A DNA stretch of 32,000 nucleotides from Schaalia odontolytica (GCF_005696695.1 NZ_CP040006.1:390001-422000); one strand, 5' to 3'. Counted from the stretch's first letter, positions 1 through 21,957 are shown. Made by a program: numbers and translations. The notes: generated from the letters alone by a model not told the origin.

Positions 1-1540
1 TCTTGTCGTCCTTGCCGGCGCCAGCACCCGCACCCGCGCCGGCCCCCATGAAGCCGCCGGAGCCTGCGCCGCCCTTGCCAGCAGCGCCGGCCGCGCCGGA
101 TGCGCCGCCGCCGTTCGCGCCCGTGGTGCCCGTGACGCCCGAGGAACCGGCGGCACCGTTCGCGCCGCCGGCGCCGGCCGCGCCCGCAGAGCCGGCGGGA
201 GGAGTGTAGGAGCCGAAGCCGGAACCCGAGTAGGAGCCGACCTTCAGGCCGGCCGCGCTCGCGCCACCCAGACCGCTGGTCGAGCCGGTCACGCCGCGCA
301 TGCCCGCGGCGCCCATGCGACCGGCGCCGGACATACCACCGGCCGAACCGGAACCGCCGAGGCCGTTCGCACCCGCACCGGATCCGCCGAAGCGGCCGAG
401 GGCGCTGGAACCGGCGCCGGCGCCACCGAAGCGACCGAAGACGCTGGAGCCGCCGAGGGAACCGGTTCCGCCGAAGCTGCCCGAACCCATGCGGGCCGCG
501 CCGCGCAGGCCGAGCGCGCCTGCACCGAGGACACCCGCGCCGCCGAGGCGACCGGCCGTGGCGGAGTCGGAAGCTGCGCCTCCGTTCAGGCGCCACAGCG
601 GGTGATGTGCGTCGGCCGGGGGTGCGGGGGTATGACCGCCGACGACGCCGTTACGGTACGCCGTGCCGTTTGCGGGGGTGTGGAGGAGGTCTGTGCCCAT
701 GAGCTCCTGAGGATCAGTGATCGGGTTCGTCCGCGACCCAAGCTCGCCATAGGCGGGTTCCTGAGTGGGAATAGCGCCGGAAGCGACCGTGCGATTCTGG
801 GCAGCGGCGGCGTCCGCCTCGCTCCACCACGGCTGGGCAAAACCACCCGGATAGTTCGCTGAGCTGGGACTTCTGTCGGCGGCGCGTCCAAAGCTATCGT
901 CCAGACTTGGGGCCGACGTCGCTTGCTTGCCTGCGATAACGCCGACATCGATCGGGTCATTTGCGTGGCCTTGCACTTTATCTCGCAGTGCAGCCTGCTG
1001 CCTCATGAGCGCCGCGATGTTGCTCGTCCGCTGGTTCACCATCGAGAGGACGCGCTGCGCGGCAGCCTCGCGCTGGGCGTTCGCCTGTGCCTCGACCGCG
1101 TCCACGTAGGCGGCGCCGGTCGTGAAGCGTTTGCCCAGCACAGAAACGCCGCCTCCGGGTGAGGAGCTAGGAACCATAACGACGGGGTTGTCACGCATGG
1201 CCTCCGTGGCAGAGTCCAGAAGGGTCGGAGAGATCATCTCAGCTTCCTTCAGCGCTGTTGCCATCGTGGATCGACCGGCCTCGTAGCTCGTGTGTCCTGC
1301 CTCGTAGATCGACCGGACCATATTGATGCGGTGAAGCGATTCAGCTACCCACTGGGTCATCGCATCGGCGGTAGCGCCCTGAAAGCCCTGACTGTCGCTG
1401 TAACGCGTTAGTCGCTCGGTCGCTTCCTTGAAGCCTTTCAGCGTCTTCTTGTGGTCGGTATCCCATGCGTCCAGGTCGCGGTTGGTTCGGGCAGCCTCCA
1501 TGAAGACCTTGAGGCGCTCGTACATCGGTGACGAAACCAT
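1..1540 (-). CDS. Putative T7SS substrate, 5' part only: helical WXG100-like N-terminal domain plus Gly/Ala/Ser-rich low-complexity region. The C-terminus lies beyond the left edge of the window.
   Basis: This ORF is missing from the ORF track because it has no stop inside the window. I translated the minus strand by hand from the ATG at 1540-1538 (MVSSPMYERLKVFMEAARTNRDLDAWDTDHKKTLKGFKEATERLTRYSDSQGFQGATADAMTQWVAESLHRINMV...). There is no in-frame stop down to nt 2, giving 513 codons. From about nt 600 downward the protein becomes Gly/Ala/Ser-rich (GGAGAGSSALGRFGGSGAGANGLGGSGSAGG...). The Pro/Ala-rich plus-strand ORFs 3..209 and 300..605 are its antisense shadows. It lies in the same operon direction as eccC. 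Confidence 0.6.
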   Translation of the reverse strand, partial: MVSSPMYERLKVFMEAARTNRDLDAWDTDHKKTLKGFKEATERLTRYSDSQGFQGATADAMTQWVAESLHRINMVRSIYEAGHTSYEAGRSTMATALKEAEMISPTLLDSATEAMRDNPVVMVPSSSPGGGVSVLGKRFTTGAAYVDAVEAQANAQREAAAQRVLSMVNQRTSNIAALMRQQAALRDKVQGHANDPIDVGVIAGKQATSAPSLDDSFGRAADRSPSSANYPGGFAQPWWSEADAAAAQNRTVASGAIPTQEPAYGELGSRTNPITDPQELMGTDLLHTPANGTAYRNGVVGGHTPAPPADAHHPLWRLNGGAASDSATAGRLGGAGVLGAGALGLRGAARMGSGSFGGTGSLGGSSVFGRFGGAGAGSSALGRFGGSGAGANGLGGSGSAGGMSGAGRMGAAGMRGVTGSTSGLGGASAAGLKVGSYSGSGFGSYTPPAGSAGAAGAGGANGAAGSSGVTGTTGANGGGASGAAGAAGKGGAGSGGFMGAGAGAGAGAGKDDK

Positions 1541-1567
1541 GATTAATTTCCCTTTTCTTATGAAGGC

Positions 1568-2125
1568 CTAGTATTCGCTTGGAGCCGAAGTGGCGGTTGA
1601 ACCACTCGTGGATCCGGATGACGATCCACCGCTCGACGCGTGAGGAAGTCCGCCGTTCATGAGTAGTGATCCGCCTAGGGAACTTGCCACGGCACCAGCC
1701 GTGCTCGAGGCGGTGGACACGCCGAAAACCTTTGAGAACTTACCGATCGATGCCTTCAAAGCCACGGCAGCGTCGGACTTGGCGACACGGTCGAGAGCCT
1801 GATTAATTTTCTCAATCCGCGCCTTGTTTTCGTGCTCCGTTCCCGTGAAGCTCGACAGTGCCGCATTGATCTCGGCCTCGAACGTGCTGATCAGGGCCGC
1901 TTCGTTTTTCAGGAGCTCAGATACTGCGTTAAACATTTCGGTAGAGCTGTCCTGCACGGAACGTGGACCCGTCTCATGCCCCCAAAACATGCTCTTCTGA
2001 GCGGCCCCTAATGCAGAAGCCCCCTGAGCGGACTCCGTCATGGCATCAAAGCCCTTTACAACCTCAGTGGCTGCCGCTTCCTGCTTTGCGCTGTCAACAG
2101 AAACCGACTGGTACTGTCCGGCCAT
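1568..2125 (-). CDS. Small helical protein with a Ser/Gly-rich C-terminal tail; possible T7SS co-substrate or partner of the downstream large protein
   Basis: Track ORF 1568..2167. I trimmed the start to the ATG at 2125 (MAGQYQSVSVDSAKQE...), which is preceded by AGGAG (minus-strand context ttAGGAGcaaaaATG). The body looks helical and the tail is SSGGSSSGSTSGSTATSAPSEY. I did not recognise a domain. Confidence 0.55.
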   Translation of the reverse strand: MAGQYQSVSVDSAKQEAAATEVVKGFDAMTESAQGASALGAAQKSMFWGHETGPRSVQDSSTEMFNAVSELLKNEAALISTFEAEINAALSSFTGTEHENKARIEKINQALDRVAKSDAAVALKASIGKFSKVFGVSTASSTAGAVASSLGGSLLMNGGLPHASSGGSSSGSTSGSTATSAPSEY

Positions 2126-2180
2126 TTTTGCTCCTAATTGTCGATGGAAGATAAAAGAGCGCTGCAATGCGCCCGGTTGC

Positions 2181-2723
2181 TTACTTGGCGACCTTGAAGC
2201 GGCGGACCAGCGGCTTATCAGGCTGGTCGGAGCCCTCGATCTTCAGGGTCCACACGTAGGTCAGGTCAGAGCCCGAGCCCTCCACGTCCACGGTCCAGGA
2301 CGAGTAGTACTCGCAGTTCTGCTCCACGCACAGGTCGTAGGTGTCATTGCCCAGTCGCCAGAAGTCGGTGGCCGACATCATCTGGTACATCGTGTCGTTC
2401 TTGTTAACCACGGTCTGGCCCTTGGGATCAAGCTTGAACTGCTGGGAAGCAATCATGCTGGGCTCCACGCCCACCAGCTGCGCGCCAACCATGTTGTTCA
2501 AGGCGACGGCCTTCTCGGCGATCTGCTTCTTCTGCGCGCCCGACGCGGACTGCATCTGCTGCACCAGCTGCTGCTTCTGCCCCTGGGGAATGTTGGGCAG
2601 CTTGCTGATATCGGTGGCCTTGGAGCCACCTCCCCCAGAGGGGGAGCAGCCCGACAGTACGACGGCAGCGAGCAGCACGGATGAGGCGACCGCACGTGCG
2701 CGACGGGACACGAGAGAGGACAT
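2181..2723 (-). CDS. Lipoprotein of unknown function, immediately downstream of eccC
   Basis: Signal peptide with a lipobox: MSSLVSRRARAVASSVLLAAVVLSGC, where LSG-C is followed by SPSGGGGS. AGGAG lies 6 nt upstream of the ATG (gtAGGAGaaaaatATG). Confidence 0.7.
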   Translation of the reverse strand: MSSLVSRRARAVASSVLLAAVVLSGCSPSGGGGSKATDISKLPNIPQGQKQQLVQQMQSASGAQKKQIAEKAVALNNMVGAQLVGVEPSMIASQQFKLDPKGQTVVNKNDTMYQMMSATDFWRLGNDTYDLCVEQNCEYYSSWTVDVEGSGSDLTYVWTLKIEGSDQPDKPLVRRFKVAK

Positions 2724-2788
2724 ATTTTTCTCCTACTTTCAGACTGGTCAATCATATGCGACGAACGGGTCGCCGTGTCAACAAACGG

Positions 2789-5700
2789 TCAGATTGATGC
2801 AGGTGGGGTGTTCGCCAGCTGGGCAGCGACCACGCCGAGCTCTCGGTGGACGACCTGCGCGCGGCCCGGAACGGCTCGCTTGGGCTTGACACCGTTGATG
2901 ATTGCGCCCTCGCTGGGATTGCCGGACAGGAGGATGCCGGTGACCGCCAGGTCGTTCATCATCTGCAGGACCTTCTCGTAGGTCGCACGCGACGCGCCAC
3001 CCATACGGCGGGTGATGATCACGTGCAGGCCGATGTCGGCGGCCTGGGGCAGCAGGTCGATGAACTCCATGAGCGGATTGCCCGACGTCGTCGCGACCAA
3101 GTCGTAGTCGTCGACCAGGATCCACACCTCGGGGCCCGACCACCAGCTGCGGTCGCGGATCTGCTCGGGAGTCACGTCCGAACCCGGCAGGCGCGTGCGC
3201 AGGAATGCTGCGAGCTCGCGCATCTGCTTCATGGCCTCGGAGTGGTTCGTCAGGTACCCCAGCTGGTAGTCCTTCGGAATCGCGCCCATGAGCGTGCGGC
3301 GCATGTCGATCGACATGATCTTTGCCTCGCCCGGCGTGTACAGGCGCGTGACCTCGGAAATGATCGAGCGCAGGAACGTCGTCTTGCCCGTCTTGCCGTC
3401 GCCGAACAGGTACAGGTGCGACTCCGCGCGGGTGTTGAACAGGAGCGGTCCGAGGCGGGACTCCTCCACGCCCAGGATCATGTCGCCACCGCCGCGCGGC
3501 AGGACCAGCGGCTCGGGGATCTGCGCGAGGATCTCGGGAACCGTGACGTTCTCGGGCAGCAGGCGCAGCTTCGGGCCCTCACCGTGGACCAGGGACTCGC
3601 GGATCTTCGCCACCGTGCGGGCAACACCCTGCGACACTGTCGATGGATCCGGATCGTCGTCGGCGCGCGGCAGGCCGATCATCATTTCGTGGCCCACCAT
3701 GTCGATGCCTCGACCCGGGCGGCCCTTCGGAATACGGGCGGCGCCCTCGCGGTTAACGATCGACTCCTTCGGATTCGCCGTGTGCAGCTCCAGGCGCGAA
3801 CCGAAGATGTCCTGCGCCTCCGAACGGATGTCCATCCAACGGGCGGCCGACACGATGAGGTGAACGCCCAGCGACAGGCCTCGGCTCATCATCGTCGTCA
3901 CCGTGCGGTCCAGGCCATCGAACTCGCTGCGCAGCGCGCCCCAGCCGTCGATCACCAGGAACACGTCGCCGTAGCCGTCGTCGTACGTGCCCTCCAGGCG
4001 GCCGCGACGGTAGGTGTCCATCGAGTCGATGCCATGCGCGCGGAAGTAACGCTCGCGGTCATCCATGATCGCCGCGATCTCGGCGATCATACGCGTGCGC
4101 ACCTCCTCGGTGTCGCGCGTCGCGATGCCCGCCACGTGCGGGGCGCCTGCAAAGCCGGCGAACGTACCGCCGCCGAAGTCCATGACGTAGAACTGGACTT
4201 CCTGCGGCGTGTAGGTCAGCGACAGGGCCTGCACGATCGTACGCAGTGCCGTCGACTTACCCGTCTGCGGGCCGCCGACCAGCGCGAAGTTACCGCCCGC
4301 GCCCGACAGGTCCAGGACGAGGGTCTCGCGACGCTGCTCGAGCGGCAGGTCGACCGTGCCCAGGGGCACGCGCAGGGGGCCGGACTCGCGCCACGCGCGC
4401 GACACGAAGCCGAGCTCCGGGTCCGGGCGCAGGTCGGGCATGAGGGTCGCGAAGGTATCCGGGATCTCCAGCGGCGGCAGCCACACCTGGTGCGCCGGGT
4501 AGCCCTTGCCCTTCATCTTCTCCACGGCGATGTCCATCTCGGACATGTCCGCCCACACCTCGTCGCCGGCCAGAACGACTTCCTGGTTCTGGTCGATCTC
4601 TTCCTCCTCGCCCAGGTCCTCGCGCGTGATGACGGGAGCGACCGTGAACGGCAGGATCTCGATCGGCGCGGTTGGAGCGCCGGCCGTCGAGGCCTCGGAA
4701 ATCGACGCGAGCGTACGCGCCGGCGGGGGAGCGGCCACGTAGGACGCGCGGAAACGAACGAGGCCGTCGCCGCCCGCCTTCAGGAAGCCCGAACCGGGCA
4801 GCGGGGGCAGCTTCGCAGCGTCGGGAATACCCAGGACCTCGCGAGAGTCGTTCTCCGTGAAGGTCTTCAGAGCAATGCGGTACGACAGGTGCGACTCCAG
4901 GCCGCGCGCCTTACCCAGGTCCATCTTCTGCGAGGCGAGCAGCAGGTGCACCGACAGGGATCGGCCCAGACGACCGATCATGATGAAGACCTCGCCGAAC
5001 TCCGGCTTGGCCACGAGCATTTCCGTGAACTCGTCCAGGACGATGAACAGGGCAGGCAGCGGCGGGAACTCGTGCTTGCCCGCGAGACGATCCGCCTCGT
5101 AGTCGGACACGTTCGCGTAGTTGCCCGCCTGGCGCAGCATCTCCTGGCGGCGCACCATTTCACCCTGCAGGGCGTCCTGCATACGGTCGACGAGGGAGAG
5201 CTCCGACTCCAGGTTCGAGATCATGGCCGACACGTGCGGCAGGTCCGCCATACCGGCGAAGGTAGCGCCACCCTTGAAGTCGACGAGAACCAGATTCAGC
5301 TGCTCCGGCGAGTGGGTGAGCGCCAGGGCCAGCACGAGGGTACGCAACACCTCGGACTTACCCGAACCGGTCGCGCCGATCAGCAGGCCGTGCGGACCCA
5401 TACCCTGCTGGGCGGATTCTTTAATGTCCAGGACCACGGGGCGGCCCTCGGGCGTGACAGCGAAGGGAGCGGCGAGGCGTTCGCGGCCCTCGCGGCGTCG
5501 CCACTGCTTCTCCGGGTCGAAGTCTCGGATATCGCCGATGCCGACGAGCTCCATGAGGTCCATTTGGCGGGACTCGTCCGAACGGCCCACCGGCGTCTCC
5601 GCCTCTTCCAGGTTCTGCTGGGTGGCGAAGGGCGTCATGCGGCGGGCCACGGCCTCGGCCTGCACGGCGGTGAGGCGGTCGGCGAACGCCTGCTCGGGCA

Positions 5701-6835
5701 GGGAGTCCATGGTGACCACGTCGACCACGTCCGCGCCCTTGTGATCCGGGTTGGGGTGGATGACGAGGCGCAGCGCCGTGTGCGACTTCATGGGCGTCCA
5801 CTCGCGGGCGCGGGACATGATCGTCACGCCGCGCACGCCCACCGCCGAACCGAAGGGGGAGTTGGGCGGGAACTCGGCCCCGTCCAACACGAGGAGGAGG
5901 TGGGGCCACTCGGGCATGTCGTCACCCGGGCGGTACGCGCCGCGCATCGCGATGTCGGGGCCGATCATCTCGGCGAGCTCGCGCGGGTCCGTCGAGATCA
6001 TGCGGCCCGGCCCCACCGCGTCGCGCACGATGGAGGAGCGGGCCTGCGGCATCCACTTGACCCATTCCCAGTCGCCCAGTCGATCGGCCGAACACAGGAC
6101 CGCGATCTTGAGCTTGGAGGGGTCGATGAAGCACGCCAGGTGCATCATGATGGCGCGCATTTCGTCGTAGGCGGTCTCGCCGTCGCCGACGACCTCGATG
6201 TGGCTGAAGTCACCCAGGTAGAGGAACTTGCCGACGTTGTCCGTGTGGTCATGGACGCCGATGAAGCGGTCCATGGCGGACAGACACACGACGTCCATCT
6301 CCGTCATCGGGTCGATCGGGGGACGCTCGAAAATGAGGCCGAGGGGCTGGGTGCCCGAGCCGTAACGGAACGTCAGCAGGTCGTACGTGTTGCCCTCGCG
6401 CGACCACAGGCGCGAACCATTCGCCGCCAGCGTCACGAGAGCGTCGGGGGAGGGGTAGACCCAGTTGTAGTAGGCGCGCTGCTTCTTCGCGACCTTGCGC
6501 ACGGACTCGCGCGTCTCCGCCAGGTAGGAGAGGTATTCGCGGCGCTGCGTCTTGACCCGCGTGCGGTACTGGGAGAACTGACGGTAGATGTTGAAGCCGA
6601 CCATGCCCAGCATGGCGACCAGCATGCCGCCGCCCATCATCAAGGAGCGCGTGTTGCCGTCGTTCTGCAAAGCCATGAAGACCATGACGCCCGTCGAACC
6701 GAGCATTGGGACGACCATCATCAGGACGTTACCGATCGATGCGGGCTCGGCCTTCTCCGGCGGCATCTGGATTGCCAGGGTGCCGGAGGGCTGCTCCGGA
6801 ACCGCGACAGTCCGCCGTTTCTTGCGTGTAACCAT
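2789..6835 (-). CDS. eccC: Type VII secretion FtsK/SpoIIIE-family ATPase EccC
   Basis: The track ORF is 1363 aa. There are two N-terminal TM segments (IGNVLMMVVPMLGSTGVMVFMAL and LMMGGGMLVAMLGMVGFNI). Three P-loop domains carry Walker A motifs GATGSGKSE, GGPQTGKST and GDGKTGKTT. I prefer the start at the ATG at 6835 (MVTRKKRRTVAV) because GAGGAG lies 5 nt upstream. Confidence 0.95.
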   Translation of the reverse strand: MVTRKKRRTVAVPEQPSGTLAIQMPPEKAEPASIGNVLMMVVPMLGSTGVMVFMALQNDGNTRSLMMGGGMLVAMLGMVGFNIYRQFSQYRTRVKTQRREYLSYLAETRESVRKVAKKQRAYYNWVYPSPDALVTLAANGSRLWSREGNTYDLLTFRYGSGTQPLGLIFERPPIDPMTEMDVVCLSAMDRFIGVHDHTDNVGKFLYLGDFSHIEVVGDGETAYDEMRAIMMHLACFIDPSKLKIAVLCSADRLGDWEWVKWMPQARSSIVRDAVGPGRMISTDPRELAEMIGPDIAMRGAYRPGDDMPEWPHLLLVLDGAEFPPNSPFGSAVGVRGVTIMSRAREWTPMKSHTALRLVIHPNPDHKGADVVDVVTMDSLPEQAFADRLTAVQAEAVARRMTPFATQQNLEEAETPVGRSDESRQMDLMELVGIGDIRDFDPEKQWRRREGRERLAAPFAVTPEGRPVVLDIKESAQQGMGPHGLLIGATGSGKSEVLRTLVLALALTHSPEQLNLVLVDFKGGATFAGMADLPHVSAMISNLESELSLVDRMQDALQGEMVRRQEMLRQAGNYANVSDYEADRLAGKHEFPPLPALFIVLDEFTEMLVAKPEFGEVFIMIGRLGRSLSVHLLLASQKMDLGKARGLESHLSYRIALKTFTENDSREVLGIPDAAKLPPLPGSGFLKAGGDGLVRFRASYVAAPPPARTLASISEASTAGAPTAPIEILPFTVAPVITREDLGEEEEIDQNQEVVLAGDEVWADMSEMDIAVEKMKGKGYPAHQVWLPPLEIPDTFATLMPDLRPDPELGFVSRAWRESGPLRVPLGTVDLPLEQRRETLVLDLSGAGGNFALVGGPQTGKSTALRTIVQALSLTYTPQEVQFYVMDFGGGTFAGFAGAPHVAGIATRDTEEVRTRMIAEIAAIMDDRERYFRAHGIDSMDTYRRGRLEGTYDDGYGDVFLVIDGWGALRSEFDGLDRTVTTMMSRGLSLGVHLIVSAARWMDIRSEAQDIFGSRLELHTANPKESIVNREGAARIPKGRPGRGIDMVGHEMMIGLPRADDDPDPSTVSQGVARTVAKIRESLVHGEGPKLRLLPENVTVPEILAQIPEPLVLPRGGGDMILGVEESRLGPLLFNTRAESHLYLFGDGKTGKTTFLRSIISEVTRLYTPGEAKIMSIDMRRTLMGAIPKDYQLGYLTNHSEAMKQMRELAAFLRTRLPGSDVTPEQIRDRSWWSGPEVWILVDDYDLVATTSGNPLMEFIDLLPQAADIGLHVIITRRMGGASRATYEKVLQMMNDLAVTGILLSGNPSEGAIINGVKPKRAVPGRAQVVHRELGVVAAQLANTPPASI

Positions 6836-10408: not shown

Positions 10409-10714
10409 TCACAGGCCGCCGAGCAGCTGGGAGAACGAGTTCTTGGTCTCGGACTCGTTGTCTGTCATCGACGAATCGGTGGCGCGCAGGTTATCAGCGA
10501 GATCCTGAAGAGCCTGGTTAACCTTTCTTACGTTCTCATCCCACTGATCCATCAGCGACTGGAACTGCACCGACGCCTCGCCCTGCCAGGAGCTGCCGAT
10601 GGTCGACAGGTCGCCCTTAAGACGCGTGGTGTGGCCGTCGATGTCGTTCTTGGTGGACTCAACCGCTGCGAAGCCCTCCTTTAGGGCACCTTCTGCGGCC
10701 CTCTGGTCTGCCAT
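10409..10714 (-). CDS. esxA: WXG100 family protein (ESAT-6/EsxA-like)
   Basis: I prefer the start at the ATG at 10714 (MADQRAAEGALKEGF...), with GGAGG 5 nt upstream. 101 aa. The WXG motif is WQG (IGSSWQGEASVQFQSLMDQW). The A versus B assignment is tentative. Confidence 0.85.
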   Translation of the reverse strand: MADQRAAEGALKEGFAAVESTKNDIDGHTTRLKGDLSTIGSSWQGEASVQFQSLMDQWDENVRKVNQALQDLADNLRATDSSMTDNESETKNSFSQLLGGL

Positions 10715-10909
10715 GTGAACCTCCATTTGTATGAGTGGACTCTCTCGCCGGGATGCGTGAGAGCATGGGGACACATGAATACTAACCATGTTTTCATCGT
10801 TTTTTTCGATGTTACGGAAAAATCATGACAAAACCTGACCGAGAATCTAGACTTACAGGGTTGTGTCGTGTAGCCAAAAACCCCATCACGCGGCATTCGG
10901 GAGGACCCA

Positions 10910-13729: not shown

Positions 13730-15144
13730 GCGCCCGCCGCACGCGTTCCCGCTTCCTGGGCCGAGGCCTCGTCGGGGCCTCGCTGATCGCTGGACTCGCG
13801 CTCGTGCCGATTGCCGCACCGGTTGTCTCGCCTGATGACTCCGGTGCGTTCGGTCCTGGCGTCGCTCACGCTGACCCGGTGCCGACCCCGAGCGTGCGTC
13901 CGACTCCGACTGCGACTCCCTCGTCGTCGGCGACGACGCCCGCGAGCGAGTCCGAGGGCGGCGAATGCTCGCAAAACTCGCCCTCGTACATCAAGCAAGC
14001 ACCCGCCATCTTCGACGCCGTCGGGGTACGTCGAGCCTGGGAGGTCTCGCGAGGCCGTGGCGTCACGGTCGCGATCGTTGACTCGGGCGTCGCCGCTGGC
14101 AATCAGCACTTCCAGGGCCCGGACGGGTCCGTCGTGCTGCCCGGCATTGACCTGAGCGGTGAAAACACCGACGGGCGCGTCGACGTCGGCGAACACGGCA
14201 CGGCCATCGCCGGTGCGATCGCCGCGCAGGAGCTGCCTAAGGAGATGGGATCCGGCCTCGTCGGCGTCGCCCCCGAGGCGAAGATCCTCCCGGTGCGCGT
14301 TGACACCGGGCTTCAGGACAATCGCCCGCACAAGGAAGGCGAAGAGACCTTCATGTCGAAGGTGGGCCGCGGGATCCAGTGGGCCGCCGACCATGGCGCG
14401 CAGATCATCGTCGTCGCACAGTCTGCTCCCGAGGGGGACCCCCAGCTGGAGGCAGCCATTAACGCCGTGCGCGGCCGGGCCCTCGTCGTGGCATCGACCG
14501 GCAACGTGTACCAGGGACAGGAAGCGAATCAGGTCGTCTACCCGGCCGCCTACCCGGGTGTGCTCGGCGTGACCGCCTCGAATGCTGACGGATCGGCCTC
14601 GGACCAGCAGGTGCACGGCGCGCACGTCAAGCTCGCTGTTCCCGCCGGCGTCATCCTCACGACCTGGTTCGATCAGGCCGACTGCCTCGTCGGCGGATAC
14701 GAGGGGGACCAGCCCCTGCCGTCCTCGTCCTACGCGACCGCATACGCGGGCGGCTTCGCGGCCCTCGTGGCCTCGGCCTACCCCGATGAGGGGCCCGACA
14801 TGTGGAAATACCGGCTCGAAGTGACCGCCCTGCGCGGCACGCCCGATCAACGCACCGACGCCCTCGGCTGGGGTGTCGTCGCTCCCTTCGACGCCCTCAC
14901 CTTCACCGATATCGGCACCAGGTTCGGGCCGGAACACCCTAACGCCGCGGAACATCCCGCTCCCGCCCGACCGGCCGTGGCCTCGGCGGACTTGACCTCG
15001 CGCGATAACAACCTGACGATCCGCGCCTACATCGTGTCCGCGATCGCAGTCCTCGGGGCCTCGCTGATCGGAGGTCTCGTGATCCTCTCCCACCTGCGCG
15101 GTAGGCCCGCCGTGGTCGAAGACTCAGAAGAGGACTTGTCGTGA
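13726..15144 (+). CDS. mycP: Mycosin (membrane-anchored subtilisin-like S8 protease) MycP
   Basis: I prefer the start at the GTG at 13726, which overlaps the eccB stop (GTGA). There is a signal peptide (VSARRTRSRFLGRGLVGASLIAGLALVPIAAP). The catalytic motifs are VAIVDSGV (Asp), EHGTAIAG (His) and SSSYATAYAGG (Ser). The C-terminal TM anchor is AYIVSAIAVLGASLIGGLVILSHL. Confidence 0.9.
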   Translation: MSARRTRSRFLGRGLVGASLIAGLALVPIAAPVVSPDDSGAFGPGVAHADPVPTPSVRPTPTATPSSSATTPASESEGGECSQNSPSYIKQAPAIFDAVGVRRAWEVSRGRGVTVAIVDSGVAAGNQHFQGPDGSVVLPGIDLSGENTDGRVDVGEHGTAIAGAIAAQELPKEMGSGLVGVAPEAKILPVRVDTGLQDNRPHKEGEETFMSKVGRGIQWAADHGAQIIVVAQSAPEGDPQLEAAINAVRGRALVVASTGNVYQGQEANQVVYPAAYPGVLGVTASNADGSASDQQVHGAHVKLAVPAGVILTTWFDQADCLVGGYEGDQPLPSSSYATAYAGGFAALVASAYPDEGPDMWKYRLEVTALRGTPDQRTDALGWGVVAPFDALTFTDIGTRFGPEHPNAAEHPAPARPAVASADLTSRDNNLTIRAYIVSAIAVLGASLIGGLVILSHLRGRPAVVEDSEEDLS

Positions 15145-16328
15145 CCACCTGGGTGTCGCGGCGCTGGGCAAAGAGCGTGGGCGTCCTCGCCAGCGCACTC
15201 GCGCTCAGCCTCGGCGCGAGCCTCACCCCCGTTGCGCCGGCTTACGCCGCCGACCCGCCGGTGACCGCTGACAAGCAGGACTACTACAAGTACTACAAGC
15301 TCAAGTCCATCCACGATCAGGGAATCACAGGCAAGGGCGTCACCATCGCGGTCCTGGACGGCGCCGTGAACCCGAACATTCCCGAACTCAGGGGCGCGAA
15401 CATTCAGGATCGGATGCCCTGCGTCAAGGACTCGGCCCCAGAGAATGCGGCACACGGCACCACGGTCGCGCAGATCCTGGTCTCGCCCGAGTTTGGTGTT
15501 GCGCCGGACGCGACGCTCTACACCTATACACTCCCCCTTCATGGTGATGCGTCGAACTGCACGCTCTCCGGCTGGACGGGGGAAGCAGAAAACGACACGC
15601 CTCTCCTCATCGAGCAAGCGATCAACGACGGCGCCAACATCATCACCATCTCCAGTAACTTTGGCGATAATTCCATCGACCTTCGATGGGCCATGGCCAG
15701 GGCCATGGCCGCGGGAGTCATCGTCGTGGCCGCGATGGGCAACGAGACTACCGAGGACCCCGATGATGCGCTGGCTATCTGGACGGGAATCTGCGGCATC
15801 GGAGCAACGCTGCATGATGGCAGCCTGACGGAGTACACGAACTGGGGCAACGGGTTGTTGACGACCGCCCTGGGAACAGTCGTGACGCGTGACACCTCGA
15901 CCGGTCGTGTCGAGGAAGCTGACGGAACGTCCTTTGCGACCCCGATTATCGCCGGCTTTTTGGCGCTCGGCTGGCAGCACTTCGACGAGGACGTGAGCGC
16001 AGGTCAGATGCTTCAAGCGCTGGCTGCAACGGGGAGAAGCGGAAACGAGTGGAACAAGTTCACCGGCTACGGCCCCGCCGACCCGATCGCGTTCCTCCGG
16101 TCAGACCCGTCGCAGTATACGGACGAGAATCCGTGCGTTCCGCAGGACAACAGGTCTTTGCCAACGAGGGATGATGTCATCGACTACATGGACGGCGTCG
16201 TCAACCCCATTCTGATTCGTAATGATGATGTCTACGTCTACCGCGGCGTGAACGAAGAGGCTGCCCTCAGCCGCGAACACGGCTACCCGACACACATCGG
16301 CACCAGCCCCCGGTACCACAGTCAGTGA
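15141..16328 (+). CDS. Secreted S8 subtilase, mycosin-adjacent paralogue 1, no C-terminal TM anchor
   Basis: The GTG at 15141 overlaps the mycP stop (GTGA). The signal peptide ends ...PVAPAYA. Triad motifs are IAVLDGAV, AAHGTTVAQ and DGTSFATP. The C-terminal tail is NDDVYVYRGVNEEAALSREHGYPTHIGTSPRYHSQ. Confidence 0.85.
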   Translation: MTTWVSRRWAKSVGVLASALALSLGASLTPVAPAYAADPPVTADKQDYYKYYKLKSIHDQGITGKGVTIAVLDGAVNPNIPELRGANIQDRMPCVKDSAPENAAHGTTVAQILVSPEFGVAPDATLYTYTLPLHGDASNCTLSGWTGEAENDTPLLIEQAINDGANIITISSNFGDNSIDLRWAMARAMAAGVIVVAAMGNETTEDPDDALAIWTGICGIGATLHDGSLTEYTNWGNGLLTTALGTVVTRDTSTGRVEEADGTSFATPIIAGFLALGWQHFDEDVSAGQMLQALAATGRSGNEWNKFTGYGPADPIAFLRSDPSQYTDENPCVPQDNRSLPTRDDVIDYMDGVVNPILIRNDDVYVYRGVNEEAALSREHGYPTHIGTSPRYHSQ

Positions 16329-16389: not shown

Positions 16390-17607
16390 ATGATGCGGTC
16401 GGCCGGTCGGTCCCGAGGCCTGCGTGCCCTCTCCGTTCTGGCATCGGCCTGTGCCCTGGCCCTGACGGCCGTGCTCTCGCCCGTCGCCCCTGCTGCCCCT
16501 GCGACAGCGGTGGATCGAGAGCTTACGGCAGCTGACCAGGCCTACTATTCGCGCTACAACCTGGAGGCGCTGCGCGCCCAGGGGTACACGGGCGAGGGCG
16601 TGATTATCGCGGTCATCGACGGGCGTATTGACACGTCCATTCCCGAGCTGCAGGGTGCGGACATCGTCGACAAGAGTACGTGCGACGTAGGAGCCGACGC
16701 CGAGCAGGACGAGCATGCGACGTTCATTGCGCAGCTCCTGGTCGCCCCGGCCTTCGGCGTTGCGCCGAAGGCCACCATCTATAACTATCGGAATGCCCTA
16801 AGCGTTAATCAGGGTAGCGACGACTGCACAACGGTATGGAATCTCCCGACGGGACGAGCCCGTACGGAATACCTCATCGAACAGGCGATCAACGACGGTG
16901 CTGACATTATCGCGATCTCCTCCAGCTACGCGGATTCTCACAATTCATCGATGCGCTGGGCTATTTCTCGCGCGACTGTGACGGGTGTTCCAATCGTTGC
17001 ATCCGTCGGTAACGACAGCGAGTACAACCCCGATGACGAACTGGGTATGTGGGGAGGAGTCATCGGTGTCGCTGCGCTCGAGCAGGATGGCACCGTTGCC
17101 GACTACTCGAACTATGGAGACGGGGTAACACTCGCGGCGATTGGTGAAATCAATGGGCGTTCGTCAATCGACGGTAAGCTCTACAAGACAAGCGGAACAT
17201 CGTACGCTTCGCCCATGGTTGCTGGTTTCCTGGCCCTCGCGTGGCAGCGTTTTGGTGGTGGTGAGGTGAGCGTGTACCAGGTTCTTCAGGCCGTGCTGGC
17301 GACCGCGTGGGGGACGAATGGGCAGTGGAACGAGCGCACGGGTTACGGTGAGATCAACCCGGCGGCTTTGCTGGCCGCCGATCCGTCGCAGTACTCGGAG
17401 GAGAATCCGCTGCTGGAGAAGGGCAGTCGCTTTGCCTTCCATGAGGATGACGTCTACGACTACTACTACGGGCTGGCGAATCCGCGCGAGGTCCTGAACG
17501 ACGACTGGTACGTGTACCGTGGTGTGGATGAGGAGGGTGCTCTGTCCGAAGGGCAGGGGTACGAGGTTCACCTGGGGACGAGCCCGCTCTATCACAACCA
17601 GGGATGA
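16390..17607 (+). CDS. Secreted S8 subtilase, paralogue 2, no C-terminal TM anchor
   Basis: Signal peptide MMRSAGRSRGLRALSVLASACALALTAVLSPVAPAAPATA. Motifs are IAVIDGRI, DEHATFIAQ and SGTSYASP. The tail is NDDWYVYRGVDEEGALSEGQGYEVHLGTSPLYHNQG. AAGGAA lies upstream. Confidence 0.85.
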   Translation: MMRSAGRSRGLRALSVLASACALALTAVLSPVAPAAPATAVDRELTAADQAYYSRYNLEALRAQGYTGEGVIIAVIDGRIDTSIPELQGADIVDKSTCDVGADAEQDEHATFIAQLLVAPAFGVAPKATIYNYRNALSVNQGSDDCTTVWNLPTGRARTEYLIEQAINDGADIIAISSSYADSHNSSMRWAISRATVTGVPIVASVGNDSEYNPDDELGMWGGVIGVAALEQDGTVADYSNYGDGVTLAAIGEINGRSSIDGKLYKTSGTSYASPMVAGFLALAWQRFGGGEVSVYQVLQAVLATAWGTNGQWNERTGYGEINPAALLAADPSQYSEENPLLEKGSRFAFHEDDVYDYYYGLANPREVLNDDWYVYRGVDEEGALSEGQGYEVHLGTSPLYHNQG

Positions 17608-17673
17608 GCGGGCCGTGAGCCGCGACGCCCTCGCGAATGTTGAAACGCCTCGATGAAAGGAATAGACAAGACG

Positions 17674-18879
17674 ATGCGATCGATTGGTCGATCCCGAGGC
17701 CTGCGTGCCCTCTCCGTTATGGCCTCGGCCTGCGCGCTGGCCCTGACGGCCGTGCTCTCGCCCGTCGCTCCCGCTGCCCCCGCAGAGGCGGTGGATCGCA
17801 AGGTGACAGCGGCGGATGAGGCGTACTATTCGCGCTACAACCTTGCGTCCTTGCATGCGCAGGGGAAGAGGGGGGATGGAGTCATCATCGCGCTCATTGA
17901 TGGTCGCGTCGATACGTCGATTCCGGAGTTGCAAGGGGCTGATATTCAAGACAAGACCCCGTGTCAGGTCACGCCCGATGCGGAGTCGAACGATCATGCG
18001 ACATTTCTCGCTCAGCTTCTGGTCGCCCCGGACTTCGGAGTCGCTCCCGGTGCGACACTCTACAGCTACGCCCAGGCGGGTTCGACGAGAGAAGCGGGCG
18101 GAGACTGCAACCTAGGGGCGCGTTCAACAGCCTATGCAGATCAATCCGTGCTGATTGAACAGGCCTTGAATGACGGCGTGGACATCATCTCGATCTCTTC
18201 CAACTATGCGTCCAGGGACAGCGAATCATTGAAATGGGCAGTTGCACGCGCTGCCGTCGACGGCGTGCCAATTGTTGGTTCGATGGGTAATGACGGAGAG
18301 CGTAATCGCACGGATCGCGTGGGGGCCTGGGGTTCGGTTGTTGGTGTTGGGGCACTTGAAACTGATGGGCGCTATGCGGACTACTCAAACTACGGTGATG
18401 GGGTCTCCATCGCCGCAGTGGGAGAGATGATTGCGCGTCAGGCCAGCACCAATAAAATCGTGACAACAGCGGGTACTTCGAACTCCGCACCTTTGGTTGC
18501 GGGAGTGCTAGCCCTGGCGTGGTCCGACTTTGATGACGGAGTGACGGGGTATCAGATTCTGCAGGCGCTGGTTGCGACCGCGAGCGGGTCGGGTGGCAAA
18601 TGGAACGATCGGACCGGTTATGGCGAGGTTGATCCAGCGGCCCTGTTGGCGTCTGATCCGTCGCGGTATCCAGACGAGAACCCCTTCGAAGAGAAGCAGG
18701 GTGATTCCGTCGTGACTCCGGATGATATCGATGATTACGACGATGGGCTCGTCAACCCGAGCTCCGTTTATAACGACGACACGTATGTGTACCGGGGCCT
18801 CGATGAGCAGGTGGTGACTTCGGGCGCGTCCGGTTACCCGGCTCACCTTGGTACGAGCCCCCGCTACCACGCGCAGTGA
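17674..18879 (+). CDS. Secreted S8 subtilase, paralogue 3, no C-terminal TM anchor
   Basis: Track ORF 17653..18879. I trimmed the start to the ATG at 17674 (MRSIGRSRGLRAL...) by alignment with paralogue 2 and the upstream GAAAGGAA. Motifs are IALIDGRV, NDHATFLAQ and AGTSNSAP. The tail is NDDTYVYRGLDEQVVTSGASGYPAHLGTSPRYHAQ. Confidence 0.85.
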   Translation: MRSIGRSRGLRALSVMASACALALTAVLSPVAPAAPAEAVDRKVTAADEAYYSRYNLASLHAQGKRGDGVIIALIDGRVDTSIPELQGADIQDKTPCQVTPDAESNDHATFLAQLLVAPDFGVAPGATLYSYAQAGSTREAGGDCNLGARSTAYADQSVLIEQALNDGVDIISISSNYASRDSESLKWAVARAAVDGVPIVGSMGNDGERNRTDRVGAWGSVVGVGALETDGRYADYSNYGDGVSIAAVGEMIARQASTNKIVTTAGTSNSAPLVAGVLALAWSDFDDGVTGYQILQALVATASGSGGKWNDRTGYGEVDPAALLASDPSRYPDENPFEEKQGDSVVTPDDIDDYDDGLVNPSSVYNDDTYVYRGLDEQVVTSGASGYPAHLGTSPRYHAQ

Positions 18880-19013: not shown

Positions 19014-19409
19014 ATGGTAGAGACGATGGGGAGCACCCCCGAAGAAGTAAGGCAGACTATCCGGGCTCAGATGGAAGCCGCTGAAAAGCGTGCCGAGAAT
19101 GCCCGTGAACTCGTCGAGATTCTCAAGACAGCGAAGACGCGTGGCGTCGACGCTCAGGGCGACGTTGAGGTCGAAATCGACTCGGACGGTCGACTCGTGA
19201 AGCTGTCGATCGATGATGACGCGCTCCAGGGAAGTGCGCGTGAACTCGAGGACTCGATCATGGAGGCCTACGCCGACGCCGGTCGCAACATGCGTGACTA
19301 CGTGCGCATGCAGACCACCCAGCGGTTCGGCGAGGACGGTGGCTCGCTCGGCGGCTACCTCGAGACTATTTCCTCGAACCTTGGTTCCCTCGGAGCGGGT
19401 CAGCGATGA
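19014..19409 (+). CDS. YbaB/EbfC-fold protein (EspL-like ESX-associated protein)
   Basis: 131 aa. It has an N-terminal helix (EEVRQTIRAQMEAAEKRAENARELVEILKTAKTRG), then GDVEVEIDSDGRLVKLSIDDDAL....LEDSIMEAYADA. This is the YbaB-like pattern. AGGA lies upstream. Confidence 0.65.
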   Translation: MVETMGSTPEEVRQTIRAQMEAAEKRAENARELVEILKTAKTRGVDAQGDVEVEIDSDGRLVKLSIDDDALQGSARELEDSIMEAYADAGRNMRDYVRMQTTQRFGEDGGSLGGYLETISSNLGSLGAGQR

Positions 19410-20740
19410 GCGCGGATCTTGGCGTCAATACAGAAGTAATCCGTGATCATGCGACCACGGTGAGTGACTGTGCGTCGACCCTCGACGAGAGCGTGGGCGT
19501 CGCCAACTCGACGAAGGGCCAGGTCAACGGCAACGCCTTCGGCCTGATCTGTTCCTTCTTCGTTTCCCCGGTCAATGAGCAGATCACGAACCTCACGAAG
19601 ATGATCTCGGACTGCTCCGCAGCCGAGAAGCGTCTTGTCAACTGCCTGCTCCAGTGGGCGCAGGAGATGGACGATCTTGAGCAAGACATCGTTGGGGATC
19701 TGCAGAAAATCCAAGGCGCCGTGGGCACATACACTAAGCCTATTGGCAACGGCGGCGACGGCGGAAACGGCGGTGCCGGTGGCGCTGGCGGTGCCGGTGG
19801 TGCCGGTGGCGCTGGTGGAGCTGGCGGTGCCGGTGGAGCTGGCGGTGCCGGTGGAGCTGGCGGATATGGCGGCGGCGGAGGTGGCGGCGGCTTCGGCGGC
19901 GGAGGCGGCTACGGTGGTGGCGGCGGCTTCGGCGGCGGAGGCGGCACCGGCGGTGGTGGCGGCTTCGGTGGTGGCGGCGGCTACGGTGGTGGCGGCGGCC
20001 TGGGCGGCCTCAGCGGACAGTCCACAATGCCCTCCCTCTCACACAACCCCGGCCTCGGTGATGACTCCGCAAAGGACGGTAAGGACGGGCACGACGGTAA
20101 GGACGGGCAGGACGGCAAGGATGGTAAGGAAGGCAAGGACGGCCAGTCCGGTAACTCCTTCGACAGCCTCCTCGGCGGCCACGACAAGCTCAACGCCGAC
20201 GACGACGAACTGCGTCGCTTCCTCGAGAAGCAGCGCGACGACGAAAACACCGATCTTGCCGAGTTCTACGAGCGCCAGAAGGAAGACCAGAACGAGGCGC
20301 TCGCGCGCTACGCTGAGGCGCACCCCGGTGAGGACATCTCCGAGGTCAAGAGCCTCATCGAGTCCAACCAGCAGGAGCAGCAGGACGCGATGACGGACTT
20401 CCTGTCGCGCCAGCGCACCGAAGAAGAAACCCAGATCCGCCAGTACGTGAAGGACAACCCGCAGGCAACGTCCCGCGAGTTCGACGCCTTCATGTCGAAG
20501 CAGCGCAACGACCAGCAGGCCAGCTACCGCAGCTTCGTCGAGGAGCAGGAGAAGGCTCAGTCCTCCCGTATCGAAGAGTTCTCGAAGGCTCACCCCGATA
20601 CGAAGACGGACGACGTGCGTTCGCTGTTCGACCGGCAGGATGACCACGGCGATAAGGACATCGAAACGTTCCTGTATCGTCAGCGCCAGGATGAAGAACG
20701 CACGCTGCGTCGCTTCCTGTTTGAAGGAGTTCAGAAGTGA
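19406..20740 (+). CDS. Mosaic putative T7SS substrate: EspC/DUF2580-like N-terminal domain, poly-Gly tract, collagen-like GXY run and acidic helical repeats
   Basis: The ATG overlaps the upstream stop (ATGA). The N-terminus MSADLGVNTEVIRDHATTVSDCASTLDES...GNAFGLICSFFVSPV resembles the 'type VII secretion target' AYGLLCxF motif. Next come GGAGGAGGAGG... and GGGGG[YF] repeats. Then KDGKDGHDGKDGQDGKDGKEGKDGQSG. Then about 7 repeats of the type FLEKQRDDENTDLAEF or FLSRQRTEEETQIRQY. Confidence 0.7.
   Translation: MSADLGVNTEVIRDHATTVSDCASTLDESVGVANSTKGQVNGNAFGLICSFFVSPVNEQITNLTKMISDCSAAEKRLVNCLLQWAQEMDDLEQDIVGDLQKIQGAVGTYTKPIGNGGDGGNGGAGGAGGAGGAGGAGGAGGAGGAGGAGGAGGYGGGGGGGGFGGGGGYGGGGGFGGGGGTGGGGGFGGGGGYGGGGGLGGLSGQSTMPSLSHNPGLGDDSAKDGKDGHDGKDGQDGKDGKEGKDGQSGNSFDSLLGGHDKLNADDDELRRFLEKQRDDENTDLAEFYERQKEDQNEALARYAEAHPGEDISEVKSLIESNQQEQQDAMTDFLSRQRTEEETQIRQYVKDNPQATSREFDAFMSKQRNDQQASYRSFVEEQEKAQSSRIEEFSKAHPDTKTDDVRSLFDRQDDHGDKDIETFLYRQRQDEERTLRRFLFEGVQK
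19745..20016 (+). repeat. GGN-codon microsatellite-like tract (9-bp and about 18-bp sub-periods) encoding the poly-Gly region
   Basis: The DNA reads GGCGGTGCCGGTGGCGCTGGCGGTGCCGGTGGTGCCGGTGGCGCTGGTGGAGCTGGCGGTGCCGGTGGAGCT..., followed by GGCGGCGGAGGCGGCTACGGTGGTGGCGGCGGCTTC-type units. Confidence 0.8.
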
Positions 20741-21957
20741 GCGTCGAATCCCCCGAATTCACACCGAGTATCGACAACACCACCCCGACCGAGGGCCTGG
20801 GTATCGTCGACGAGCTGTACAACGTCGCCCAGGACCTGCGCGCCGGCGAGGTGAACAACCTCGTCGATTCAGCGAAGGCAATTTACGAGGAAGCAGCCGG
20901 GCTCGCCGTTGACCCTATCGGTGGTCTCGTCGGTATGGGCGTCGAGTGGATCTTGCAGCACATCGATCCCCTCAAGACCTGGGTGAACCAGCTGACCGGC
21001 GACTCGGCTCAGGTGTACGGCATGAGCTCCAGCTGGGACTCCATCTCGAGCTCCCTCGCCTCCGTTGCTGAAGAGCTGCAGTCCACCGCACAGGCCGCGA
21101 TGTCCGGCATGCACGGCGAAGCAGTGCGCGCGTACCTGGAGCGCCAGGCCGTCGTCACCAGTGCGATCGACGGCGTCTCTGCTGCGTCTGGTGCCTTCGG
21201 CGAGGCGCTCACGAAGGTGGCAGACTCCGTCGACAGCATCCATGACGCCGTCGTGGGCGCCATCGGCGATATCGTTGGCAGCTGTGTTTCCGCAGCGGCC
21301 GAGGTAATCTTCACCGCTGGTCTTGCAGCTCCCGCCGCCGAAGCGCAGGTTGCCAGTAAGGTCGCCAAGTGGGTCGGACTCATCGGCCCTGTCCTGGATG
21401 TCCTCATGGAAGCCGTTCAGGCCATCATGGCGATCTACGCCGTCATGACCTCGGTCGGCGAGAACCTGACCCGCGGCGTCGAGCACATCGGCGAGCAGTG
21501 CCAGGCCCCCGGCGGCGGCTGCTGCGGCGAGGGACACAGCAAGGGCGGCGAGGGCTACGAGCTGCGCGACGGAAGAAACGTGTACGTCGACGGCGATAAC
21601 AACGGCACCATCGTGAACGGTGACGTCAATATCGAGGAAGACAATCACACGGAGATCAACCCCAGTATCGAGCTCAGCCCCGAAATCAATATCGAGCACG
21701 AGCACGAAGAGCACCACCACCACGGTAAGCACGACGGGGGCGACGACTCTTCGCACGACAAATCGCACGGTCGCAAGGCACCGCACGAGCAGCAGCACAA
21801 CGGCGCTAGTGAGCGCGGAACTCGCCCGCGCAAACAGCACGGAGGCAACCACGACAGCGGAAACGATGGGAATCACCATCGTCACAAGGGTGGCAGCAGC
21901 CACGATGGCAGTGGACACCGCCCTCGTCGCCCCCACCATCATCGCCGGCCTCACTGA
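20737..21957 (+). CDS. Putative large T7SS substrate: WXG100-like/T7SS-signal-type N-terminal domain, hydrophobic helices and a Cys- and His-rich C-terminal tail
   Basis: The GTG at 20737 overlaps the upstream stop (GTGA), with GAAGGAG 7 nt upstream. The N-terminus is VDPIGGLVGMGVEWILQHIDPLKTWVNQLTGDSAQVYGMSSSWDSISSSL...MHGEAVRAYLERQ. This matches the G-x-G-W-L-x-x-H-x-x-P-L...L-x-G-D...W...G-x-A-x-x-A-Y pattern of large actinobacterial WXG-like substrates. The hydrophobic stretch is WVGLIGPVLDVLMEAVQAIMAIYAVMTSVG. The tail has 22 His in the last ~86 aa (HEHEEHHHHGKH...RPHHHRRPH). Confidence 0.7.
   Translation: MSVESPEFTPSIDNTTPTEGLGIVDELYNVAQDLRAGEVNNLVDSAKAIYEEAAGLAVDPIGGLVGMGVEWILQHIDPLKTWVNQLTGDSAQVYGMSSSWDSISSSLASVAEELQSTAQAAMSGMHGEAVRAYLERQAVVTSAIDGVSAASGAFGEALTKVADSVDSIHDAVVGAIGDIVGSCVSAAAEVIFTAGLAAPAAEAQVASKVAKWVGLIGPVLDVLMEAVQAIMAIYAVMTSVGENLTRGVEHIGEQCQAPGGGCCGEGHSKGGEGYELRDGRNVYVDGDNNGTIVNGDVNIEEDNHTEINPSIELSPEINIEHEHEEHHHHGKHDGGDDSSHDKSHGRKAPHEQQHNGASERGTRPRKQHGGNHDSGNDGNHHRHKGGSSHDGSGHRPRRPHHHRRPH

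Follow-up and report, generated by a model that had tools for sequence, protein, structure and literature searches.

A stretch of 32,000 nucleotides from Schaalia odontolytica XH001 (GCF_005696695.1, NZ_CP040006.1:390001-422000; hereafter the window) carries a locus for an ESX-4-like type VIIa secretion system (T7SSa), which was analysed over positions 1-21957. The DNA is high in GC and actinobacterial in character. Schaalia (Actinomyces) odontolytica XH001 is the host of TM7x, the first cultivated Saccharibacterium. Coordinates are window positions on the strand given 5' to 3'. Gene calls were those of the public assembly GCA_001462375.1 (contig LLVT01000001.1), which encodes identical proteins, combined with our own family scans (Table 1). 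An orthologous cluster of S. odontolytica F0309 (OBNOAD_00322-00338) is described in a bioRxiv preprint (9 September 2026, 10.64898/2026.09.08.750141, PMC13622651), and its names for the substrates AesA and AesB and the output protein EsrG2 are used below.

Core genes and gene content of the locus

Pfam and NCBIfam profile searches bore out the core named in a preliminary description of this DNA, namely eccC, eccD, eccB, mycP and a WXG100 pair. EccC scored 807 bits with TIGR03924 (cut-off 509) and 764 bits with TIGR03925 (cut-off 347). It is an unsplit, single-polypeptide FtsK/SpoIIIE ATPase with two N-terminal transmembrane (TM) helices (residues 37-83) and three P-loop domains, and among solved structures the closest to it is that of Thermomonospora curvata EccC (4NH0; 1000 bits across residues 206-1339, compared with 520 for EccC5). 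EccD combines a YukD-like ubiquitin fold with an EccD membrane domain (PF08817, 45.7 bits, and PF19053, 46.4 bits, both above cut-off); its TIGR03920 score of 93 bits falls just under the cut-off of 95. EccB, with one TM helix and an extracytoplasmic domain, was detected above cut-off by PF05108 (170 bits) and below cut-off by TIGR03919 (148 bits, cut-off 154), and its matches in the PDB were EccB1, EccB3 and EccB5. The best NCBIfam model for MycP was TIGR03921 at 214 bits, below the cut-off of 279; besides its signal peptide and S8 domain the protein has a TM helix (residues 436-454), and MycP1 and MycP3 are among its top PDB matches. The smaller WXG100 protein (93 residues) contains a WEG motif and ends in YQSTD (residues 82-86), a YxxxD export motif, and its 105-residue partner contains a WQG motif. 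Collectively, the core features of a T7SSa are present: EccC, EccB with EccD, an anchored mycosin, and an adjacent WXG100 pair with YxxxD.

No protein of the locus matched EccE (PF11203 and the NCBIfam model) or EccA at E <= 0.1-1, and none of the proteins from the kinase encoded left of the window to base 21957 matched EspG or PE/PPE in Pfam or NCBIfam at this threshold. We also considered a disguised EccE among the unassigned proteins. This was rejected, as none combines two N-terminal TM helices, a soluble domain and an EccE match; the RDD-FHA protein comes nearest in architecture, but its soluble part is an FHA domain. The lack of EccA, EccE, EspG and PE/PPE in the locus argues against an ESX-1, ESX-2, ESX-3 or ESX-5 system. 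The lack of EccE and EccA architectures and the ESX-4-type layout (eccB, eccC, eccD, mycP and esx pair without eccE, eccA, PE/PPE or espG) agree with what had been proposed, no unassigned protein being a clear homologue of either component.

The core genes sum to 8883 bp, or 40.5% of the 21957 bp, so the earlier figure of about 60% accessory sequence is right. The accessory genes then listed, a second EccD-like gene, an RDD-FHA gene, a lipoprotein and four low-complexity putative substrates, are all there. Three extra subtilases do follow mycP, but the total is six, since three more lie left of the window. Neither does the locus start at base 1: the leftmost gene, for a protein of 565 residues, is cut by the edge, and the locus continues to the left with the three S8 genes, a Ser/Thr kinase and a transglutaminase.

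Table 1. Genes of the secretion locus in window coordinates (aa, amino acids; AF2, AlphaFold2)
Feature	Position	Strand	Characteristics or basis
Predicted AesB orthologue, first 513 of 565 codons	<1-1540	-	N-terminal helical domain, Gly/Ala-rich disordered region; right-hand part of gene in window
185-aa helical protein with Ser/Gly-rich tail, probable AesA	1568-2125	-	adjoins aesB
180-aa lipoprotein	2181-2723	-	signal peptide and lipobox VLSGC; eccC operon
EccC	2789-6835	-	TIGR03924, TIGR03925
EccD2, 478-aa polytopic protein	6974-8410	+	family profile, AF2 model
RDD-FHA protein, probable EsrG2	8410-9870	+	weak RDD/FhaB matches, FHA residues
WXG100 protein, 93 aa	10105-10386	-	TIGR03930, 81 bits
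WXG100 protein, 105 aa, partner of the 93-aa protein	10409-10726	-	Pfam WXG100, 61 bits; TIGR03930, 56 bits
EccD, canonical	10910-12271	+	Pfam YukD and EccD
EccB	12275-13729	+	Pfam PF05108
MycP, anchored mycosin, 472 aa	13726-15144	+	S8 domain, signal peptide, C-terminal TM anchor
Secreted subtilase 1	15141-16328	+	Pfam S8
Secreted subtilase 2	16390-17607	+	Pfam S8
Secreted subtilase 3	17653-18879	+	Pfam S8
YbaB/EbfC-fold protein, 131 aa	19014-19409	+	Pfam PF02575, E 2.5e-10
444-aa putative substrate, EspC-like	19406-20740	+	Pfam EspC, E 1.8e-4, below cut-off
406-aa putative substrate, WXG100-like	20737-21957	+	weak WXG100_2 and WXG100 matches

The second EccD and the membrane FHA protein

Taken alone, EccD2 is barely recognisable. 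The Pfam EccD model gave E=0.01 (15 bits, cut-off 30), BLASTP found no significant match between EccD2 and the EccD of the window, and a shallow profile of 14 sequences matched nothing in the PDB and yielded an unusable AF2 model (predicted local distance difference test, pLDDT, of 46). The syntenic protein of a distant contig, L029, passes Pfam EccD (36.6 bits against 30), and hhalign aligned EccD2 to it end to end (probability 99.9, E 1e-35, 31% identity). An exhaustive profile search of 1.84 billion proteins returned 102 representatives, from which 39 near-full-length members, the window protein included, were chosen as a family set. Pfam EccD matched 33 of the 39, and their profile matched EccD5 of PDB 7NP7 (E 5.8e-11). 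The AF2 model built from this alignment (pLDDT 87; predicted template modelling score, pTM, 0.79) consists of a beta-grasp, ubiquitin-like N-terminal domain and eleven long helices; a Foldseek search of the PDB returned 13 matches at E <= 0.001 (1.5e-10 to 6e-5), every one an EccD3 or EccD5 chain. Because transitive homology, family profile and modelled structure agree, EccD2 is identified by profile and predicted fold as a bona fide but divergent EccD paralogue, in line with the second EccD-like gene proposed earlier. In solved ESX-3 and ESX-5 complexes each protomer holds two EccD copies in non-equivalent positions (see the structures cited in PMC11217815). The presence of two divergent EccD paralogues in a locus without EccE thus suggests by analogy that EccD and EccD2 may fill both positions as a heterodimer.

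The gene overlapping the end of eccD2 encodes a membrane RDD domain, a Pro/Ala-rich disordered linker and, at the C-terminus, an FHA domain, with three predicted TM helices in all. Its own library matches to RDD and FhaB are weak. In five orthologues of 35-64% overall identity, the RDD-type membrane segment is kept and the FHA core GR...SLSRTH...SANGT (G396-R397, S418-R-T-H421, N440-G441) is invariant. Gly-Arg, Ser-x-x-His and Asn-Gly are the canonical phosphothreonine-binding positions of FHA domains. The family profile matched the archaeal FHA protein ArnA (PDB 5A8I, E 8e-5). Residues beyond the last hydrophobic segment are rich in Arg and Lys, consistent with a cytoplasmic FHA domain.

A genome-collection scan with one protein gave only Schaalia/Pauljensenia relatives, and other taxa were sampled by following EccB homologues to their contigs. 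The order S8(n)-aesB-aesA-lipoprotein-eccC / eccD2-RDD/FHA / esx pair / eccD-eccB-mycP-S8(0-3)-ybaB is kept in 13 Schaalia/Pauljensenia loci. Four distant contigs (Actinomyces dentalis-like, Propionicimonas and two others, one of them very abundant), with EccB proteins 31-38% identical to that of the window, all carry eccC / eccD2 (recognised by Pfam EccD)-RDD/FHA / WXG100 pair / eccD-eccB-one S8. Kinase, transglutaminase and DUF58 genes (and MoxR and Big_9) adjoin the locus in two of them, and one has YbaB and EspC-like genes after mycP. No lipoprotein, AesA/AesB or extra subtilase gene was found within 10 kb in these four contigs. The ESX locus of Streptomyces sp. S465 (L113) contains eccE, two S8 proteases, a YbaB-like gene and DUF2563; the eccD2-RDD/FHA pair was not seen in the 21.6-kb stretch around its eccB.

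The synteny in distant contigs indicated that eccD2 and the RDD/FHA gene are a lineage-wide addition to an ESX-4-like core. The pair is conserved across Actinomycetales and Propionibacteriales and the rest of the accessory set is Schaalia-specific; the extra subtilases, the lipoprotein and most substrates are not subtype-defining. The expectation that the accessory set travels as one block thus held for eccD2 and RDD/FHA and failed for the subtilases, lipoprotein and AesA/AesB, which are confined to Schaalia.

These data bear on whether the locus is a distinct, as yet unclassified T7SS subtype, with a two-EccD core and a membrane FHA subunit replacing EccE, deserving its own letter or number beside ESX-1 to ESX-5 and T7SSa to T7SSj. 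The pair keeps its position and sequence in Actinomyces, Propionicimonas and the other contigs despite the divergence of EccB, the stretch obtained from the single Streptomyces locus examined, which bears EccE, did not show it, and the EccD2 family is small (the 102 representatives above). Against this, EccC, EccB, EccD, MycP and the Esx proteins all match T7SSa models, such loci of non-mycobacterial actinobacteria have been filed as ESX-4 or ESX-4-like T7SSa (PMC11217815, PMC4791881), and two eccD genes around eccC are already known from ESX-4-bis (PMC4779608). We consider a separate subtype rather unlikely. Of the claim for one, the conserved eccD2-RDD/FHA block survives, while the T7SSa core, the orthologue already described in F0309 and the confinement of the other accessories to Schaalia tell against it. 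The locus is an ESX-4-like T7SSa with a lineage-specific module.

Substrates, their control and the secreted subtilases

In F0309, the cluster is induced by the epibiont TM7-008, and this induction is epibiont-specific. Deletion of eccC allows TM7-008 to proliferate, and host fitness falls under heavy infection. The Esx-dependent secretome comprises EsxA, EsxB, AesA and AesB, all lost in the eccC mutant; AesA and AesB form an interdependent effector pair, and further candidate substrates were not secreted under the conditions used (PMC13622651). The preprint gives the induced 'Esx' genes as OBNOAD_00322-00326 and 00329-00338. It makes no mention of EccB, EccD, EccE, a second EccD, a mycosin or subtilases.

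The complete gene for the 565-residue protein is called at L007:11184-12881 of the same genome, its last 52 codons, with GYVNP, lying left of the window. FQG occupies residues 53-55 of the protein, Gly and Ala are abundant at about 320-509, and GYVNP lies in a charged tail of 56 residues ('...DELPAGYVNPLSQ...'). AesB of F0309 is described with a helical N-terminal domain that contains FXG, about 160 residues of Gly-rich disordered sequence, and a charged 56-residue tail whose GYVNP motif is needed for function (PMC13622651). Because FQG, the Gly/Ala-rich stretch and the GYVNP tail fit this description, the protein is, as far as its sequence features go, the orthologue of AesB. The neighbouring 185-residue protein had no match in Pfam or NCBIfam and is kept at 38-64% identity in Schaalia loci; its position and the preprint's description make it probably AesA, the co-secreted partner of AesB. 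In the preprint, EsxA and EsxB are tagged OBNOAD_00329-00330 in the Results and 00330-00331 in the Methods, and, judged by the window positions, aesA (00323) and aesB (00324) seem to be reversed in their order with respect to eccC (PMC13622651).

A metagenome contig bearing a kinase 100% identical to that of XH001 encodes, upstream, a 2019-residue Big_9/cadherin/fn3 protein, a DUF58 protein and a transglutaminase; MoxR next to such a locus was seen only in the more distant L029. The set of sensor, DUF58 protein, transglutaminase and kinase matches the Esr2 cluster, which in F0309 comprises an Ig-repeat/beta-propeller sensor, MoxR, a von Willebrand factor A (vWA) protein, a transglutaminase, a Ser/Thr kinase and the FHA output EsrG2. 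Esr2 is required post-translationally for the export of AesA/AesB and not for that of EsxA/EsxB, and AesA/AesB export needs esrA2 (PMC13622651). No other FHA protein was found among the proteins scanned between the Ig-repeat sensor gene and base 21957. Since the RDD-FHA protein is the sole FHA protein found in that interval and EsrG2 has a C-terminal FHA domain (PMC13622651), it is probably EsrG2, the output of the Esr2 pathway.

Among the remaining accessory proteins, the lipoprotein is 59-93% identical across Schaalia loci, and no homologue was found in the distant loci. The YbaB/EbfC-fold protein is possibly an EspL-like chaperone; a YbaB gene also follows mycP in L114, and the Streptomyces locus has another. 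The 444-residue protein starts with a helical domain like that of EspC, continues with Gly-rich and KDG repeats and is charged in its C-terminal half, and by position is probably OBNOAD_00337, a candidate substrate in PMC13622651. Nested tandem repeats at 19768-20154 (Gly-rich units of 18, 27 and 36 bp; KDG units of 9 and 27 bp) make it likely that the repeat region of the protein varies in length between strains. The 406-residue protein, probably OBNOAD_00338 by position, combines a helical domain resembling WXG100 with two hydrophobic helices (residues 179-237), contains a Cys-Cys-Gly motif and is extremely rich in His over its C-terminal 100 residues, features that suggest membrane insertion and/or metal binding. 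Its homologue in the Propionicimonas locus is 29% identical.

The same proteins raise the question of a more general role in interbacterial antagonism or toxin export, like that of the T7SSb of Bacillota, in which defence against epibionts would be one case and the 406-residue and other helical substrates would be toxins. The WXG100-like 406-residue protein with its hydrophobic helices and Propionicimonas homologue would fit such a role, as would the candidate substrates that stayed unsecreted under the preprint's conditions (PMC13622651). RHS-repeat and DUF222/HNH genes, lying between mycP and the kinase/transglutaminase genes of Propionicimonas (L031:12915-15870), hint at toxin cargo in that relative. 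However, none of the proteins of the locus contained a recognisable toxin or immunity domain, only EsxA/EsxB and AesA/AesB were Esx-dependent in the secretome, and induction was epibiont-specific (PMC13622651). We regard a general antagonistic role as improbable.

The six extra subtilases of XH001 are 395-413 residues long. Those to the left (413, 404 and 402 residues; L007:12860-16640) lie on the other side of aesB. All have signal peptides, no C-terminal TM helix, invariant Asp/His/Asn/Ser catalytic residues and a common tail of about 70 residues ('Y.YRG.DE...GYP.HLGTSPRYH'). Pairwise identities are 41-63% among the six and 21-24% to MycP. Their best NCBIfam model is the mycosin model TIGR03921, at 121-129 bits or under half of the cut-off of 279, and their best PDB relatives are subtilisin BPN', no mycosin appearing in the top 60. 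Mycosin architecture and PDB matches to MycP1 and MycP3 are found, among the subtilases of the locus, only in the 472-residue protein after eccB. That the extra enzymes are duplicates of the mycosin was rejected on the missing anchor, the sub-cut-off score and the PDB neighbours; judged by sequence, they are S8, subtilisin-like proteins with an intact triad and not mycosins. One oral metagenome contig carries the mycosin gene as two open reading frames, of 422 and 50 codons (L005:3011-4428), possibly through a frameshift or an assembly error.

The number of subtilases after mycP varies among Schaalia loci from none (L024, Actinomyces sp. ICM47) to three. A homologue search with one secreted subtilase was uninformative on distribution outside Schaalia, the best 120 matches listed all being at least 65% identical. 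The signal peptides indicate that the extra subtilases are probably Sec-exported accessories, which may process substrates or attack the epibiont surface. They could instead be ordinary Sec-secreted proteases for nutrition or surface maintenance that flank the system by chance. Being closer to subtilisin BPN' than to mycosins, lacking the mycosin anchor and varying in copy number would all fit bystanders, as would the fact that the ESX loci examined in other genera (the four distant contigs) lack them, which speaks against their belonging to the machine itself. The two S8 genes of the Streptomyces locus show that extra S8 genes in ESX loci are not unique to Schaalia. On the other side, the genes are interleaved with esx genes on both flanks in the same orientation with overlaps or short gaps (mycP and the first S8 gene overlap at 15141-15144, and aesB overlaps S8e in L007), their top NCBIfam model is the mycosin one, and the induced OBNOAD ranges appear by position to include several of them. 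The tight linkage and this inclusion suggest that the subtilases belong to the system, and chance flanking is a possibility that we take seriously but lean against.

Downstream of the locus lie unrelated genes (TrkA, a DUF559-like protein, TrkH, PfkB, MFS and DUF4853). The restriction-endonuclease-like DUF559/MTES_1575-like reading frame (23581-24675, - strand) sits between trkA and trkH (25068-26630, - strand), with a 42-bp tandem repeat between it and trkH (24904-25016; 2.7 copies, 84% matches). Two neighbouring DUF4853 paralogues occupy the right end of the window (31060-31683 and 31680-32000, - strand); a DUF4853 gene also occurs in the ESX locus of L029 (4608-5105), where the RDD-FHA gene and the esx pair flank it. 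Scans for Rfam families, tRNA genes and promoters or terminators gave nothing relevant.

The Esx system of XH001 and its known relatives

Our best explanation is that the locus encodes the Esx (type VIIa, ESX-4-like) secretion system of S. odontolytica XH001. The machine would be built of EccC, EccB, EccD, EccD2 and an anchored mycosin, with neither EccE nor EccA. It would export an EsxA/EsxB-like WXG100 heterodimer and a second heterodimer, AesA/AesB, which in F0309 limits the growth of parasitic Saccharibacteria on the cell surface. Export of AesA/AesB would be controlled post-translationally by the adjoining Esr2 module (Ig-repeat sensor, DUF58/vWA protein, transglutaminase and Ser/Thr kinase), with the membrane RDD-FHA protein beside eccD2 as the likely phosphothreonine-reading output that acts on the machine. 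We hold this explanation as a whole, machine, exported pairs and Esr2 control together, to be very probable. Gene identities, EccD2 homology and fold, FHA residues and synteny come from the present sequence analysis; secretion, defence and Esr2 dependence come from published work on F0309; the EccD/EccD2 heterodimer, the equation of the RDD-FHA protein with EsrG2 and any role of the subtilases are what we infer.

Several points weigh against it. The functional evidence is all from another strain, F0309, and another epibiont, TM7-008, and a second one, TM7-074, is able to escape the system. This evidence is from a preprint that has not undergone peer review and in which the numbering of locus tags disagrees with itself (PMC13622651), so that AesA and EsrG2 were mapped by description and position, not by sequence. 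The placing of EccD and EccD2 in one complex is argued from analogy with solved systems, and the subtilases are tied to secretion by genomic position rather than functionally.

Because the same-species orthologue has been characterised genetically and proteomically, and the linkage of FHA protein and kinase explained (PMC13622651), the system as such is already described and is not a new kind; what we add is moderate. In the literature searched we did not meet EccD2 as an EccD paralogue conserved with an RDD-FHA gene, the heterodimer of EccD proteins that may occur in EccE-less systems, or the variable, six-member array of anchorless subtilases in the Schaalia locus. We tentatively put forward a wider picture for the ancestral-type T7SSa of Actinomycetales and Propionibacteriales, in which each protomer would hold an EccD/EccD2 heterodimer, the RDD-FHA protein would take the peripheral place of EccE and couple kinase-based threat sensing to the gating of late substrates, and the Schaalia subtilase array would be a diversifying extracellular anti-epibiont arm. 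If true, the machine would be built unlike every solved ESX complex. Among the Esx systems of non-mycobacterial actinomycetes, that of F0309 is the first to have a defined ecological role, namely defence against epibiotic parasites. To that functional study the present analysis adds a parts list of the machine, with a second EccD and a membrane FHA partner, both conserved, the absence of EccE, and strain-variable secreted subtilases. They offer targets for asking in what way a T7SSa without EccE is assembled and gated by phosphorylation, two matters left unanswered by ESX-4 biology.

The closest known system is the Esx/Esr2 system of F0309. It shares with XH001 the species, the apparent gene content, the EsxA/EsxB pair, the features of AesB, the adjoining kinase, transglutaminase and Ig-repeat sensor, and the FHA output protein. 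It differs in strain and in the number of subtilases after mycP (two, from locus-tag counting, against three), the two loci having been compared by description and not by sequence. With mycobacterial ESX-4, and with the ESX-4-like T7SSa of non-mycobacterial species, the locus shares eccB, eccC, eccD, mycP, the esx pair, a single-polypeptide EccC and the lack of eccA, eccE, espG and PE/PPE. Its gene order differs from the eccB/mycP/eccD/eccC/esx of ESX-4, and beyond ESX-4 it carries the second EccD, the RDD-FHA protein, Aes-type substrates, extra subtilases and the linked threat-sensing module. Unlike the mycobacterial hosts of ESX-4, Schaalia is a monoderm without a mycomembrane.

In ESX-4-bis, found in some mycobacteria, eccC is flanked on either side by an eccD gene, the two being different (Dumas et al. 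2016, PMC4779608). The two systems have in common the two eccD genes and the lack of PE/PPE and espG. ESX-4-bis, however, carries eccE, and no FHA protein has been reported for it (PMC4779608), whereas the Schaalia locus has no eccE and a different gene order, with its eccD genes on one side of eccC and beyond the esx pair. Of Thermomonospora curvata, the non-mycobacterial actinomycete with the closest solved EccC relative, the ATPase alone was compared. In the T7SSd of Olsenella and Bifidobacterium and other T7SS variants linked to kinase and FHA (Garrett et al. 2024, PMC11217815), a secretion ATPase and WXG100 proteins are likewise encoded with a Ser/Thr kinase and with an FHA domain that retains its phosphothreonine-binding residues, and the encoding of kinase and FHA protein with a T7SS suggests phospho-control. 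The FHA domains of T7SSd form N-terminal fusions with the ATPase, and EccB, EccD, MycP and a ubiquitin-like component are absent (PMC11217815). In Schaalia, by contrast, EccC starts with TM helices and has no FHA match, EccB, EccD and MycP are present, which sets the locus apart from T7SSd and T7SSb-like systems alike, and the FHA domain sits on a separate RDD membrane protein beside a T7SSa core.

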